The notes below the pieces were generated by a model. The model did not search any database. It was not told the DNA's origin and worked only from the letters and a program-made list of their open reading frames with translations. A stretch of 61,374 bases of DNA from an uncultured Clostridia bacterium (GTDB lineage Bacteria; Bacillota; Clostridia; TANB77; CAG-508). Of the stretch, positions 31,130 through 36,104 are shown piece after piece; the first letter of the stretch is position 1, and every line of letters begins with the position of its first letter. Both the position numbers and the translations under genes were made by a program. The stretch spans positions 1-61,374 of the forward strand of contig CALXUT010000039.1 of NCBI GenBank assembly GCA_944391755.1. The letters are read 5' to 3'.

Positions 31130-33175
31130 ATGTTAGATTTAAATAAAGATGTGAAATATGTAAAAACTGTAGGACCCAATAGAGTAAAATTATTAAATAA
31201 GTTAAATATATATACATTAAAAGATTTAATAACATATTTTCCACGAGATTATGAAGATAGAAGCAAACCGAAAAACTTATATGAATGTGTGGATGGAGAA
31301 GAAGTGCTAATAGAAGCAATGGCAGCAGGAAAGATGAATGAAATGCATAAAGGGAGAATGACAATCAGCAGATTAATTGTAAAAGATCAAACTGGAACTT
31401 GTTATATAACATGGTTTAATCAAGGATATTTAAGAGATAAATTTCAACCAGGCAGGATGTATCGCTTTTTTGGAAAAATATCTGTAAAAAATGGAAGAAT
31501 AGAAATGAATTCTCCTGTATATGATGAAATAGACCAAAGCAAAAATACTGGAAAAATCATACCAATCTACCCATTAACATATGAATTAAAACAATCCACA
31601 TTAAGAAGAATCATAGAAAATGGGTTAGCAGAGGTGAAAGGTCAATTACCCGAAACACTTCCAGAATATATATTAAAAGAATATGATTTATGGGAAATCA
31701 ATAAAACAATAGAAAGAATCCACTTTCCAATCGATTTTTCGGATTTTAATAAAGCACGAGAAAGATTGGTATTTGAAGAATTACTTACAATGCAATTAGC
31801 TTTATTAAAATTAAAAAATCATTATGAACATGACAAAAATGGAATACAATTTAGCAGAGATGTACATATGTCAGATATTATCAATATATTACCATTTCAA
31901 TTAACAAAAGCACAATTACGAGTATTAGAAGAAATTGATAGAGATATGGAAAGCACTAGACCAATGAATCGATTATTGCAAGGAGATGTTGGCTCTGGAA
32001 AAACAGTAGTAGCGATGATTGCTGCATATAAGGCTGTAAAATCAGGGTACCAAGCAACGATTATGGCACCAACAGCAATACTAGCAAGTCAACATTTAGA
32101 AAGCTTTCAATCTATTTTATCAAAATTTGGTATCAGATGTGAACTATTAATATCCAATATCACCAAAAAGAAAAAAACAGAGATATTAGAAAAGCTACAA
32201 AATGGAGAAATCGATATCTTAATAGGGACACATGCAATATTAGAAGAAAATGTCGTTTTTAAAAATTTAGGTTTAGTCATAACAGATGAACAGCATAGGT
32301 TTGGAGTAAAACAAAGAAGTACAATTGCTTCAAAAGCTCAAAATCCTGATATTATCGCTATGTCAGCAACTCCCATACCAAGAACGCTAGCATTAATTTT
32401 ATATGGAGATTTAGATATATCCATTATAGATGAACTTCCACCAAACAGAAAGAAAATAGAAACTTATGCAGTCAGAAAAAATATGGAAGAAAGACTAAAT
32501 GCTTTTATAAGAAAACAAATTGATGAAGGCAGGCAGGCATATATTGTATGTCCATTAGTAGAAGAAAACGAAGAAATGGAATTAAAATCTGTTATAGAAC
32601 TTGCAGAAAAATACCAAAAAGAAACCTTTAGTAATTATAAAGTGGCATATTTACATGGAAAAATGAAACCAAAAGAAAAAGATGAAATTATGCAAAGATT
32701 TAAAGAGGGAGAAATTCAAATTCTAGTTGCAACTACGGTTATAGAAGTTGGGGTGAATGTGCCAAATGCAAGTATCATGGTAGTAGAAAATGCAGAAAGA
32801 TTCGGCTTAGCACAATTACATCAATTAAGAGGAAGAGTTGGAAGAGGAGAATATCAATCCTATTGTATATTAAAATACGAGGGAAATGGAGAAACAACAA
32901 GACAAAGAATGAAAGTTATGTGTGATACAAATGATGGATTTATCATATCAGAAAAAGACTTAGAATTAAGAGGTTCAGGAGATTTCTTTGGAACAGAACA
33001 ACATGGATTACCAGAATTTAAAATTGCGAATTTGTTTGAAGATATAGGAACTCTAAAAAAAGTTCAAAAATTGGCAATCGATATTATGGAAAAAGATCCA
33101 ATGTTAGAGGATGAAAAAAATAAGAAATTAAATGAATTAGTAAAAGAAAAATTTAATTCAAGAATTGAAATTTAA
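31130..33175 (+). CDS. recG: ATP-dependent DNA helicase RecG
   Basis: LQGDVGSGKT, DEQHRFGV, MSATPIPRT, AERFGLAQLHQLRGRVGR and DLELRGSGD. Confidence 0.98.
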   Translation: MLDLNKDVKYVKTVGPNRVKLLNKLNIYTLKDLITYFPRDYEDRSKPKNLYECVDGEEVLIEAMAAGKMNEMHKGRMTISRLIVKDQTGTCYITWFNQGYLRDKFQPGRMYRFFGKISVKNGRIEMNSPVYDEIDQSKNTGKIIPIYPLTYELKQSTLRRIIENGLAEVKGQLPETLPEYILKEYDLWEINKTIERIHFPIDFSDFNKARERLVFEELLTMQLALLKLKNHYEHDKNGIQFSRDVHMSDIINILPFQLTKAQLRVLEEIDRDMESTRPMNRLLQGDVGSGKTVVAMIAAYKAVKSGYQATIMAPTAILASQHLESFQSILSKFGIRCELLISNITKKKKTEILEKLQNGEIDILIGTHAILEENVVFKNLGLVITDEQHRFGVKQRSTIASKAQNPDIIAMSATPIPRTLALILYGDLDISIIDELPPNRKKIETYAVRKNMEERLNAFIRKQIDEGRQAYIVCPLVEENEEMELKSVIELAEKYQKETFSNYKVAYLHGKMKPKEKDEIMQRFKEGEIQILVATTVIEVGVNVPNASIMVVENAERFGLAQLHQLRGRVGRGEYQSYCILKYEGNGETTRQRMKVMCDTNDGFIISEKDLELRGSGDFFGTEQHGLPEFKIANLFEDIGTLKKVQKLAIDIMEKDPMLEDEKNKKLNELVKEKFNSRIEI

Positions 33176-33182
33176 GTTAAAA

Positions 33183-33204
33183 TGGCACTGGTTCCTAAGA
33201 CCAG
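33183..33204 (-). repeat. Exact 22-nt inverted copy of the tRNA-Leu anticodon arm
   Basis: tggcactggttcctaagaccag is the reverse complement of 33585-33606. Confidence 0.9.
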
Positions 33205-33231
33205 TGATAAAGGAAAAGGATGTAGATAAAT

Positions 33232-33420
33232 ATGTTATGGATAATTTTAAGATTAATAGGAGCATTAATAGCGCTTGCAGGAGTTATTTTAATATATGAT
33301 GCAAGAATTATTACCAAAAAAGCATTTGGATTCGGAGATCAAAATGAGGCCACTAGTGGTTTGAAAATAGTAGGTACTATACTTAGCTGTATAGGAGCGT
33401 TAATTATATTTTTTTGTTAG
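33232..33420 (+). CDS. Small two-TM hypothetical membrane protein
   Basis: 62 aa with two hydrophobic helices; purine-rich RBS upstream. Confidence 0.7.
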   Translation: MLWIILRLIGALIALAGVILIYDARIITKKAFGFGDQNEATSGLKIVGTILSCIGALIIFFC

Positions 33421-33508
33421 TGAATGAATTTTGAAAAAATATCTGATTTTAGAAAATCATAGTTTCAAAAAATGAGTTCAAAAAATTAATAAAAAAGGTT
33501 AAAAATTA

Positions 33509-33537
33509 TTGACAATGTATTTTAATTATGGTATTAT
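33509..33537 (+). promoter_or_regulatory. sigmaA promoter of tRNA-Leu
   Basis: TTGACA-17 nt-TATTAT with extended TG. Confidence 0.7.
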
Positions 33538-33557
33538 ATACATTGTCAATAATTTTT

Positions 33558-33641
33558 GCGGATGTGGCGGAACTGGCAGACGCGCTGGTCTTAGGAACCA
33601 GTGCCAACGGCGTGGAGGTTCGAGTCCTCTCATCCGCACCA
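33558..33641 (+). tRNA. tRNA-Leu(TAG)
   Basis: Cloverleaf with long variable arm, anticodon arm ctggt-ctTAGga-accag, GGTTCGAGTCC and CCA. Confidence 0.97.
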
Positions 33642-33768
33642 ACTTAGTATCAAGCAACAAAATGACTTGATACTTTATTTATTTTTCACAGTGATTTAAA
33701 TCAACAAATTAATTCTTAAAATTTACTTAGTTAACCCAAAAAATTAAATATATAAAGGAGGAATAGCT

Positions 33769-34275
33769 ATGAAAACAAACTTAGCTAATTTAATGAACAT
33801 CGTTGTTGATGAGGAGAAAAGATTTTCATCACTTGGATATGACATAAAAGATCATGCTTACAGTGTTTCTGCACAAGAATTAGACGGAAGAACAACTATT
33901 ATAGAAGACTATCAAGAAGACTTTACAAAAGAATTTGAAGAATACAAAAAAACACAAGAAAAAATTACAAAAATAAAGGCAACCATCTATGAGAAAAACA
34001 ACACATTTAAATTACCAGATGGAAGAACAATTCAAGAAGCTATTGTAGATAATACAAATTTAAGAAAAATGAAGACAATATATAATTATCTAATATCTCA
34101 GAGAGATAGCAAAAGAAGAGTTACAGAAGTCAATAATTCCTATTTTGAATGTAAAACGGTGAATTATGATGTAAACAAATTGAAACAAGAATATGATAAA
34201 CTAGAGAAAAAAATACAAGATACAGACTTTGAAATATCAAAACTAAATTCCATAGAATTTGACATAAATATATAA
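33769..34275 (+). CDS. All-helical coiled-coil protein resembling the DIP1984/DUF6847 family
   Basis: TIQEAIVD, V(N)YDVNKLKQEYDKL and DFEISKLNSIEFDI echo the family pattern; 168 aa; RBS aaggagg. Confidence 0.6.
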   Translation: MKTNLANLMNIVVDEEKRFSSLGYDIKDHAYSVSAQELDGRTTIIEDYQEDFTKEFEEYKKTQEKITKIKATIYEKNNTFKLPDGRTIQEAIVDNTNLRKMKTIYNYLISQRDSKRRVTEVNNSYFECKTVNYDVNKLKQEYDKLEKKIQDTDFEISKLNSIEFDINI

Positions 34276-34570
34276 AATATAGGTGCTTACAAAGGTATTC
34301 AGTAAGGTAAATGTGAAAGAACAAACAGCCTATCCTATCTTTTCATATTCTATATTGGTGAAAATTATTTGTTAAAAAGATGAGCAAATATAAGTATTGA
34401 GCCTGTTAGGGTATTTGCCAATTTACAAATTATTGATTGTTTATAAATTATAATTTACAATATATATTTTAATTAATATATAAATAAAATGAATGGATTT
34501 AAAATTATTTTTTAATATATGAAAAGATAGGTCAGAGGAGCATATTGTTTTTAGGAATAATATGCTTCTT
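34276..34570 (+). ncRNA. Candidate structured 3' RNA (~290 nt) downstream of the DIP1984-like gene
   Basis: Long-range stem 34334-34347/34517-34531, inner hairpin 34384-34418, and terminator ggagcatatt..aatatgcttc at ~34536-34570. Confidence 0.45.
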
Positions 34571-34607
34571 TACTTTTTATGTTAATATAAACTTTTTGTG
34601 GGGAAAA

Positions 34608-34636
34608 TTGACAAAACAACATGTGCATGATAAAAT
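34608..34636 (+). promoter_or_regulatory. sigmaA promoter of rlmD
   Basis: TTGACA-17 nt-TAAAAT with extended TG. Confidence 0.7.
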
Positions 34637-34739
34637 ATTACTTGTAAAACAAGCGGCACATTACTTTGGCTAATGTGTCGTTTAAGCTAAATATAGAGTA
34701 TAAATGCAATGTCATTTAGAAACAATAAAAGGAGAAAAG

Positions 34740-36104
34740 ATGGAAATCAAAAAGAATCAAGAATATATAGTAGATATAATAGACAATGGGTTTGAAGGAG
34801 AAGGAATTGCCAAAATAGACAATTTCACAGTATTTATTCCTGGAGCTATAAAAGGAGAAAAAATAAAAATCCTAATTGTAAAAGTATTATCTTCACATGC
34901 ATTTGGAAAAATTTTAGAAATTTTAGAAAAATCAGAAAAAAGACAAGATGCAGACTGTATTACTTATAAGAGATGTGGTGGATGTAATTTAAGACATATA
35001 CAGTATGAAGAAACTTTGAAGATGAAACAAAATGCAGTCCAAAGTTTAGTAAATAAAACTTTAAAAAATAAAATTCAAGTAGACAAAACTATTGGGATGG
35101 ATAAACCATATCATTACAGAAATAAAGCACAATATCCATTAGGAATTGATAAAAATGGAGACCCAGTAATAGGTGTTTTTGCAAATAGAACGCATGAAGT
35201 AATTCCAATGGAAAACTGTTTCATTCAAAATCCACAATCAGAAGAAATTGCAAAATATGTTTTACAATTTATAAAACAAAATCATATAAGTATTTATAAT
35301 GAAGAAACACAAAAAGGACTATTTAGGCATATCGTCATAAAAGTGGGAATAAAAACAAATGAAATTATGTGTATATTTGTTATAAATGGTAAAAATATTC
35401 CAAAAGAAAACGAACTAAAAAGTGCTTTAGTACAAAGATTTTCCAATATAAAAACCATTGTAAAAAATATCAATACAAAAAATACAAATGTGATTTTAGG
35501 AGAACAAAATATAAATATATTTGGAAATGGTTATATAGAAGATATTCTAGGGGAATATAGATTCAAAATTTCTCCACTATCTTTTTTCCAGGTAAATCCT
35601 ATTCAAGCGGAGAAACTATATAATATTGGGGTAAAGGCTGCGAATATTTCAAAAGATGATGTTGTATTTGATTTATATTGCGGAATTGGTACAATTTCAT
35701 TATTTATGGCGAAATTTGCTAAAAAAGTCTATGGAATTGAAATTGTAAAAGAAGCGGTAGAAATGGCAAAAGAAAATGTGAAAAATAATCATATTGAAAA
35801 TGTTGAATTTTACGATGGGGATGTCGAAATTGTTCTAGAGGATATGATACATAATAAAAAGATTATTCCGGATATTGTTATGTTTGATCCTCCTAGAAAA
35901 GGATTAGATAAAAAGAGTATCCATAATATTTTGAAAATCAAACCTAAAAAAATAGTGTATATTAGTTGTAATCCTGCTACTTTGATTAGGGATTTATCTG
36001 ATTTTGAGGACTTATATGAAGTAAAATCTATTACGCCTGTTGATATGTTTCCTTTTACCAGCCATGTGGAGTGTGTGGCAGTTTTAGAACTAAAGAATTT
36101 CTAA
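34740..36104 (+). CDS. rlmD: 23S rRNA (uracil-C5)-methyltransferase with TRAM domain
   Basis: TRAM domain, CxxxxxCGGC, YRNK, SFFQVN, DLYCGIG, DPPRKG, YISCNP and DMFPFTSHVE. Confidence 0.96.
   Translation: MEIKKNQEYIVDIIDNGFEGEGIAKIDNFTVFIPGAIKGEKIKILIVKVLSSHAFGKILEILEKSEKRQDADCITYKRCGGCNLRHIQYEETLKMKQNAVQSLVNKTLKNKIQVDKTIGMDKPYHYRNKAQYPLGIDKNGDPVIGVFANRTHEVIPMENCFIQNPQSEEIAKYVLQFIKQNHISIYNEETQKGLFRHIVIKVGIKTNEIMCIFVINGKNIPKENELKSALVQRFSNIKTIVKNINTKNTNVILGEQNINIFGNGYIEDILGEYRFKISPLSFFQVNPIQAEKLYNIGVKAANISKDDVVFDLYCGIGTISLFMAKFAKKVYGIEIVKEAVEMAKENVKNNHIENVEFYDGDVEIVLEDMIHNKKIIPDIVMFDPPRKGLDKKSIHNILKIKPKKIVYISCNPATLIRDLSDFEDLYEVKSITPVDMFPFTSHVECVAVLELKNF

Follow-up and report, generated by a model that had tools for sequence, protein, structure and literature searches.

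A DUF6847/DIP1984-family gene of gut Bacillota is followed by a conserved, structured and expressed RNA: a candidate ribonucleoprotein cassette

The window analyzed here is a stretch of 61,374 nucleotides from an uncultured Clostridia bacterium (contig CALXUT010000039.1, positions 1 to 61,374). It carries a gene of the DUF6847/DIP1984 family that is followed by a conserved, structured and expressed RNA rather than by a plain 3′ untranslated region (UTR). In the roughly 80 gut Bacillota species examined, this RNA was strictly coupled to the DUF6847 gene. The RNA matched no catalogued family, which points to an undescribed protein-RNA pair, and we lean towards the reading that the protein and the adjacent RNA constitute a dedicated ribonucleoprotein cassette. 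A protein-plus-RNA module had been proposed in a first-pass annotation made from the sequence alone, and this proposal is strongly supported by the strict co-occurrence of gene and RNA, by helix covariation and by the detection of the RNA as a discrete species.

Approximately 296 non-coding nt extend from the stop codon TAA to an intrinsic terminator with a 17-pair stem, in agreement with the earlier description of ~290 non-coding nt closed by a strong terminator. In the terminator scan, shuffled sequence yielded 0.1 such sites. The features of the gene and the RNA are as follows.

33769-34275, + strand: DUF6847/DIP1984-family gene encoding 168 aa, from the list of open reading frames (ORFs); stop codon TAA at 34273-34275
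34229-34258, + strand: promoter-like TTGAAA-18-TAGAAT at the end of the coding sequence (CDS), from the consensus scan; candidate RNA start at ~34265
34279-34333, + strand: 5′ domain, a three-helix junction of P0, P1 and P2, matched by covariance model R1 with 62.7 bits
34279-34283 pairing with 34329-34333, + strand: P0, from RNAalifold and covariation
34286-34290 pairing with 34302-34306, + strand: P1, from RNAalifold and covariation
34291-34301, + strand: P1 loop, conserved 11 nt, AAAGGUAUUCA
34307-34312, + strand: linker, GUAAAU in the window
~34312-34314 pairing with 34321-34323, + strand: P2, a short helix, from covariation of its basal pair
34334-34348, + strand: 5′ arm of the long-range helix, CCTATCTTTTCATAT (CCUAUCUUUUCAUAU), a perfect 15-bp complement that abuts P0 directly
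34384-34418, + strand: internal hairpin GCAAAUA...CCU-GUU-AGG...UAUUUGC, from the minimum-free-energy and constrained folds
34422-34433, 34440-34451 and 34454-34465, + strand: three UUUAYAAWUUAU-like units with UUAYA motifs phased at 7 nt
34517-34531, + strand: 3′ arm of the long-range helix, ATATGAAAAGATAGG (AUAUGAAAAGAUAGG), pairing 15/15 with the 5′ arm
34534-34580, + strand: intrinsic terminator, with the 17-pair stem at 34534-34571 and a U-rich tail

The region folded better than its shuffles on the + strand (z = -3.4), and the - strand gave z = -2.5. The fold constrained to the conserved helices reached -64.5 kcal/mol, compared with -65.2 kcal/mol for the unconstrained fold. The long-range stem of 14/15 nt noticed in the first-pass annotation is present, but its 5′ arm comprises 15 nt (34334-34348) and not 34334-34347, a T having been dropped from the written sequence, and all 15 positions are paired. 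The two arms are separated by 168 nt, within which the enclosed hairpin GCAAATA...CCT-GTT-AGG...TATTTGC was found as described. Hairpins recur at the corresponding position in clade A, where by eye AAUC/GAUU alternates with AGUC/GACU. A search with cmscan against Rfam 15 (E <= 10) over 33000-35200 returned a tRNA alone, with no match in 34276-34580.

Two further candidates within the RNA were considered and set aside. A small ORF (GTG start, 34283-34375, 30 aa) was not conserved, and the alignments of relatives showed indels that are not multiples of three. In the window, AUUCA of the P1 loop (34297-34301) could form a pseudoknot with UGAAU at 34491-34495; a few relatives appeared compensatory by eye, but the pattern was inconsistent across loci, and this pairing between the P1 loop and the 3′ interior is not claimed.

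The element was conserved among homologs of the gene. A scan of species-representative genomes yielded 80 loci with encoded proteins 50-79% identical, and in nearly all of them the element begins 3-20 nt after the stop codon. The shared element consists of a P0 stem (NNNGG...CCNNN), a P1 hairpin with the conserved 11-nt loop, a linker UUAAAU, a variable P2 and an AGCC motif. Next comes a 10-20-bp long-range helix, species-specific in sequence, whose 3′ arm ends 200-285 nt past the stop codon, and in most relatives a terminator follows 0-5 nt after this arm. Thus, the long structured 3′ region, the lack of which in homologs would have spoken against the first-pass proposal, is present behind about 80 homologous genes.

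R1, the covariance model of the RNA 5′ domain, matched 81 of 86 homolog sources, always just past the stop codon, and gave no further match at E <= 1 in 660 kb. Searched over 61 related whole genomes, R1 matched in two genomes alone (G000 and G035), behind three DUF6847 genes, and detected nothing in the 56 related genomes lacking the gene; two gene-bearing relatives with divergent RNAs fell below the stricter filters of the genome scan. The gene itself is accessory: 5 of the 61 related genomes carry it, as do 21 of 401 Bacillota genomes. Degenerate copies were also found. At L042/L005, one deletion takes the RNA and the protein C-terminus together; at L084, the 5′ domain is lost and the protein C-terminus is altered; at L004, the protein gene has an in-frame stop and the RNA is intact. 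At the C-terminus of the protein, amino acids are conserved and synonymous sites vary freely. G035 has two paralogous cassettes (L004/L027 and L008/L082), with proteins 69% and 51% identical and an RNA of a different type in each; codon 133 of the closer copy is an in-frame TAG.

Covariation analysis of the downstream regions of homologs revealed that P0, P1, the basal pair of P2 and the long-range helix covary. In P1, 99.7% of cells were paired, and each of the 5 pairs showed compensatory changes. The third P0 pair was UA in 26, GC in 25 and AU in 15 cases, and the basal P2 pair was GC in 29, AU in 19 and UA in 19. The whole structure outscored all 500 column shuffles and every slid register. 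The long helix had a median score of 26, compared with 17 when 5′ and 3′ regions were paired across different loci. RNAalifold applied to 16 full-length clade-A sequences recovered P0, P1 and 13 long-helix pairs unaided. Under strand-neutral scoring of the long helices, 68 G.U pairs were found vs 9 A.C pairs (permuted pairs, 253 vs 177; Fisher p = 1.7e-7). G.U pairs thus far exceed A.C pairs, and the pairing therefore takes place in the + strand RNA and not in a DNA inverted repeat.

The expression of the RNA was examined in Logan contigs of eight metatranscriptome runs of gut origin, which came from four studies and sampled chicken gut, faeces and gut. In seven of the eight runs, the RNA was assembled as one discrete contig within 34291-34541, 99-100% identical to the window.

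34291-34531, 34295-34541, 34295-34537, 34291-34541, 34300-34537, 34307-34521 and 34307-34529: discrete RNA contigs in the seven runs

The transcript therefore does not end soon after the stop codon, an outcome that would have spoken against the first-pass proposal; discrete contigs reach 34541. The eighth run (X2) contained a strain-variant contig (34135-34494) across the stop codon, and because it spans the CDS into the RNA, the two are co-transcribed in at least one strain. The CDS was assembled in two runs only, in one at four-fold lower depth and in the other as the X2 contig, and recG and rlmD were assembled in none of the eight runs. A word search detected the RNA in 12 metatranscriptomic runs. 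In DNA-like runs, the CDS and the RNA had equal depth. Contig depth, a rough measure of abundance, was 16.5, 108 and 30.8 for transfer-messenger RNA (tmRNA) and 10.6, 10.6 and 5.9 for the RNA in the same runs (ratio about 0.1 to 0.6). The depth of the RNA was thus lower than that of tmRNA by about an order of magnitude at most and greatly exceeded that of the mRNAs. The organism-specific tmRNA was used as the reference because RNase P RNA shares short conserved words with other organisms that swamp its depth.

Since contigs lose their extreme ends, the true RNA probably extends from about 34265-34285 to the terminator. It may arise either by processing of the transcript of the gene or from a promoter in the last codons. 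The -10 hexamer of the promoter-like sequence was kept in 20 of 25 clade-A species and in 16 of 49 clade-B species, a retention that can be explained by codon usage. One contig, of uncertain library type, starts at 34263. In the strain variant, observed in two runs, ~20 differences fell in the last 110 nt of the CDS stretch (34105-34211) vs 3 in the ~260-nt RNA (34276-34540), none of the 3 inside a helix; this contrast points to recombination or to a stronger constraint on the RNA.

The interior of the RNA contains the UUAYA array. The tttacaa/ttataaat repeats mentioned in the first-pass annotation are present at 34422-34465, but their description as low-complexity did not stand, as the motif is enriched, strand-specific and phased at 7 nt. 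UUACA was the most enriched pentamer (6.4-fold) in the RNA interiors of relatives, and TTACA occurred 102 times vs 10 for its reverse complement TGTAA. Lag-7 autocorrelation over the interiors of 58 loci gave z = 9.1. UUAYA pairs exactly 7 nt apart numbered 57, against 1.8 expected, with minor peaks at 11, 14, 18 and 25 nt. The array is proposed to be a protein-binding platform.

The DUF6847 gene has a strong ribosome-binding site (AAGGAGG, 33755-33761), and its assignment by eye to the DIP1984/DUF6847 family proved correct. The protein matched Pfam DUF6847 (PF20935) with 41.6 bits against a cut-off of 27, residues 49-160 aligning with profile positions 28-136, and a whole-genome search with PF20935 returned the same ORF (41.1 bits). 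The score for NCBIfam DIP1984_fam (NF038048) was 45.3 bits (E = 9.5e-12), below the cut-off of 70, so the protein is homologous but lies outside the curated subfamily and represents a divergent branch of the DIP1984 family. Typical Bacillota members of DUF6847 score 145-190 bits, compared with ~41 for the window protein. Metagenomes contained 1100 homologs. The polar motifs KNN, DGRTIQ, TEVNNSYF and TDFEISKLNS are strongly conserved, and the window protein is mildly acidic (pI 5.4) with 13 conserved basic residues.

An AlphaFold2 model built from 71 homologs (pLDDT 95.3) predicted four long helices and two beta-hairpins, and not the plain coiled coil that had been suggested. Foldseek against the PDB matched this model to 3KDQ (DIP1984) alone, chains C and A, with a probability of 1.00 and TM of 0.59-0.66, and gave no other match at E < 0.6; a confident predicted model thus places the protein in the DIP1984 fold. 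The sequence profile searched against the PDB gave E = 0.026. In BFVD, the proteins of the DUF6847 fold are all uncharacterised phage proteins. PADLOC gave nothing better than E = 0.1 for the protein, and PHROGs nothing significant. 3KDQ is a structure from Corynebacterium diphtheriae, released in 2009, with no assigned function. In a full-text literature search, no functional work on DUF6847/DIP1984 was found, the name appearing only as an annotation of Acinetobacter plasmids, and neither the searched literature nor Rfam 15 contained a partner RNA for the family. Some of these plasmid annotations name the family 'septicolysin' or 'DIP1984 family protein' (PMC10889530).

The neighboring genes differ between loci, and the two-part cassette therefore moves as a unit. 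A search of IMG/VR gave four contigs, and a tblastn search of 50,697 GenBank phage records gave no match for the protein. In three IMG/VR phage contigs of two lineages (L091:1-7600, L092:1-7700 and L093), the order is tRNA array, ORF156, DUF6847, ~300 nt of non-coding sequence, dUTPase and RNA ligase. The arrays hold 7 or 18 tRNAs, that of L092 being accompanied by a tmRNA-like gene in the ARAGORN output, and the ligase is of PF09414 with a PHA02142 OB-fold domain. The phage non-coding stretch has a different 5′ hairpin and again a long-range helix enclosing UUACAA repeats. In other Bacillota families (L096-L113), typical DUF6847 genes have a different conserved downstream non-coding stretch of ~200-230 nt. 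By eye, it contains a GGUAGC...CUACC long-range helix, a T-arm-like hairpin (GGTTCRANYCC) and a GUGAGGGUGGG (GTGAGGGTGGG)-N4-GGGGA tail. Behind seven such genes, no Rfam match was found at E <= 0.1.

Two other genes accompany the cassette in subsets of loci, neither of them in the window genome. A small helix-turn-helix (HTH)-like gene immediately precedes the cassette in about 30 of 79 loci, which all belong to the more distant clade, and is probably the cassette's own regulator. Its product of ~122 aa has a weak Cro/C1-type match and the motif DRKLFSKIR, and the gene lies on the same strand ~80-150 nt before the DUF6847 gene (L035-L089; e.g. L041:2160-2528). In one sub-clade, a gene with RNase H-like (RVT_3) and winged-helix parts is located right after the RNA. 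This protein matched Pfam RVT_3 with 26.9 bits and RNase_H with 24.2 bits and has a C-terminal winged-helix or RepL-like part; the gene (L025:4810-5541, L029:4799-5545 and L042:611-1339; also in L004 and L005) starts directly past the 3′ arm of the RNA with no terminator between. No reverse transcriptase was present among the neighbors in 79 loci, unlike what a retron would show.

In the window, the cassette is flanked by tRNA-Leu and rlmD, as the first-pass annotation had stated and as ARAGORN and TIGR00479 confirmed.

33558-33641, + strand: tRNA-Leu(UAG), from ARAGORN (Rfam tRNA, 56.7 bits), the immediate upstream neighbor of the DUF6847 gene

The tRNA-Leu gene has its own promoter in the promoter scan (TTGACA-17-TATTAT, 33509-33537) and is treated as context, not as a member of the DUF6847 unit. 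Like the window, five other loci (L032, L034, L059, L061 and L072) have a same-strand tRNA gene immediately upstream. The interval that separates tRNA-Leu from the DUF6847 gene contains a weak, AT-rich hairpin resembling a terminator at ~33647-33690, with the sequence AGTATCAAG...CTTGATACT and a T-run behind it; it was missed in the consensus scan because it has fewer than three G-C pairs. The downstream flank encodes RlmD (TIGR00479, 443 bits), and RecG is encoded farther upstream. rlmD has its own near-consensus promoter with a TG extension (TTGACA-17-TAAAAT, 34608-34636) and a leader of ~100 nt (34608-34739 region) with a hairpin (34651-34663 / 34671-34683). The window has a low G+C content; its source is a 1.48-Mb metagenome-assembled genome (MAG) in 51 contigs with a completeness of 88%, with MAGs of gut Clostridia and Bacilli as close relatives. 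Within this 88%-complete genome, no Ro60 (TROVE, PF05731) was found, and RtcB is present but unlinked.

We infer the binding, the stoichiometry and the function of the pair from these observations. The cassette has two parts, the DUF6847 gene and, after it, a dedicated structured non-coding RNA of ~250-300 nt, which accumulates as a separate, stable and abundant species. In the RNA, the P0/P1/P2 junction abuts the 15-bp closing helix, with the hairpin and a single-strand-like UUAYA array inside and a terminator behind. The protein and the RNA may form a ribonucleoprotein, in which several subunits, or one oligomer, might read the evenly spaced UUAYA units, and the 5′ junction and the closing helix could confer specificity and shield the RNA from exonucleases. 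Judged from its context, the complex may act in RNA or tRNA transactions during conflict between host and mobile elements or upon RNA damage. The link to RNA stress or repair, drawn in the first-pass annotation, is a guess based on the tRNA arrays and RNA ligase of the phages and on the upstream tRNAs.

Several observations weigh against this reading. The protein is mildly acidic and has no known RNA-binding fold. By base-pair probabilities, the predicted accessibility of the UUAYA units (0.438) did not exceed that of the remaining interior (0.44). The ends of Logan contigs cannot fix the true ends of the RNA, and these contigs carry no strand information. The repair and tRNA connections are a matter of context, and the window genome has no repair gene linked to the cassette. 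Taken by itself, co-location is also compatible with an RNA that controls the gene or counteracts its product.

The last of these points leads to a toxin-antitoxin or abortive-infection-like pair, in which an excess of RNA neutralises an otherwise harmful DUF6847 protein, to be released when the RNA is lost or a phage provides the trigger. We consider this rather unlikely. Such a pair would account for an RNA far more abundant than the CDS message and bearing repeated short motifs, for the patchy and mobile cassette (5/61 relatives, 21/401 Bacillota genomes and phage contigs), for the small HTH regulator upstream in about 30 loci and for the altered proteins where the RNA is deleted or truncated (L042/L005 and L084). 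However, the fold, matched by Foldseek to 3KDQ alone, is unlike any known toxin, PADLOC returned nothing better than its E = 0.1 level, and the gene order is the reverse of the ToxIN type, with 7-nt units instead of ~36-nt tandem repeats. Moreover, the protein of L004 has an in-frame stop with the RNA intact, and a pure antitoxin would therefore be dispensable there. An unlikely alternative is a cis-acting 3′ UTR element that stabilises or autoregulates its own mRNA, the discrete RNA being a nuclease-resistant remnant of decay. The start of the element 3-20 nt past the stop codon, the co-transcription seen in contig 34135-34494 and the lack of a clearly conserved internal promoter agree with this explanation, but ~300 nt with a junction, a periodic array and covariation across 50%-identical proteins exceed the needs of a stabiliser. 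It is also at odds with an RNA within about ten-fold of tmRNA when the CDS is mostly unassembled, and with the different, equally elaborate RNAs kept by different DUF6847 clades.

It is decidedly unlikely that the RNA acts alone, as a sponge, a decoy or by base-pairing, on another factor such as a ribonuclease or tRNAs, with DUF6847 merely co-expressed and having a function of its own or an accessory one. Sponge RNAs typically carry motif arrays, the RNA offers the UUAYA units no complementary partner (TTACA 102 vs TGTAA 10), and the module adjoins tRNA genes and the phage RNA ligase. Nevertheless, about 90 Mb of sequence from relatives contained no instance of the RNA apart from the gene, an argument for direct dependence, and each of the two paralogous cassettes of G035 keeps its own RNA type. 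Scarcely credible is a DNA-level element, whose 15-bp inverted repeats would either serve recombination in an invertible switch or bound a miniature transposable element, despite the perfect repeats around 168 bp of AT-rich DNA with promoter-like hexamers. The arms tolerate G.U but not A.C (68 vs 9), which is the logic of one-strand RNA, and their sequences vary between species. The genome contains the 305-nt region once, and a mobile repeat was rejected on this ground; the only other match covers 72 nt at 78% identity and lies in another AT-rich stretch. Unlike an inverton, the element had one orientation and no strand-change joints over 12 runs, in all contigs of metatranscriptome and DNA-like runs alike. 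No recombinase was noticed among the neighbor-gene clusters of 79 loci, where no search was aimed at recombinases. The G.U/A.C asymmetry, the single orientation and the single copy per genome thus effectively exclude an invertible switch or miniature transposon.

Returning to the ribonucleoprotein cassette, a much bolder extension would make it a DUF6847 particle widespread in bacteria and phages and acting on tRNAs. The protein would assemble on the 7-nt-phased array, and the units would capture, shield or present tRNAs in host-phage conflict over tRNA cleavage. The array units U-UAY-A and U-ACA-A are complementary to positions 33-37 in the anticodon loops of tRNA-Tyr(GUA) and tRNA-Thr(UGU), and capture or shielding of tRNAs, if true, would explain the phage placement between tRNA arrays and an RNA ligase. 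We regard this extension as a long shot.

With the RNA described here, an orphan family whose structure has been solved (3KDQ) would acquire an obligatory RNA partner, which would make its function directly testable. Few RNAs of this uncultured gut bacterium assemble from metatranscriptomes; that this one does is unusual, given its absence from Rfam. Differently built downstream stretches go with the more distant family members and the phage copies. The evenly spaced motifs suggest one protein subunit per unit, and the phage context, with its tRNA array and RNA ligase, gives a hint of involvement in RNA damage or in a tRNA-centred conflict between host and virus.

Among known systems, the DIP1984 family represented by 3KDQ is the one to which the window protein belongs, as it passes the Pfam cut-off and shares the fold, but it differs in being a divergent branch. 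Ro60 (Rsr) with its Y RNAs (YrlA/YrlB, RF02553) likewise combines a protein gene with an adjacent modular and abundant RNA whose ends are joined by a helix, and likewise occurs in bacteria and phages, sometimes near RNA-repair genes. The protein fold is unrelated, however, the window genome has no TROVE domain, and RF02553 gave no match at E <= 10. To our knowledge, the periodic UUAYA array has no counterpart in Y RNAs. Type III toxin-antitoxin systems (ToxIN/AbiQ, CptIN and TenpIN) likewise consist of a protein and an adjacent repeat-bearing RNA with a terminator, and are mobile and phage-associated. In those systems, an endoribonuclease toxin processes tandem RNA repeats of ~34-36 nt that are encoded upstream of it, whereas in the window the RNA lies downstream, 7-nt units are set in a larger fold and the protein does not resemble nucleases in its fold. 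TRAP and HutP are oligomers that read evenly spaced RNA triplets, and the fixed-spacing motifs of the window RNA may similarly suggest one motif per subunit. The sites of TRAP and HutP lie in 5′ leaders of the regulated operons, and these proteins have other folds; the window array sits inside a stand-alone stable RNA, so the analogy would be one of mechanism only. Finally, small RNAs derived from 3′ UTRs resemble the window RNA in their location in the 3′ UTR, in using the terminator of the gene and in outlasting the mRNA, but the window RNA is much larger and more ornate and is strictly tied to one protein family in widely differing genomic contexts.

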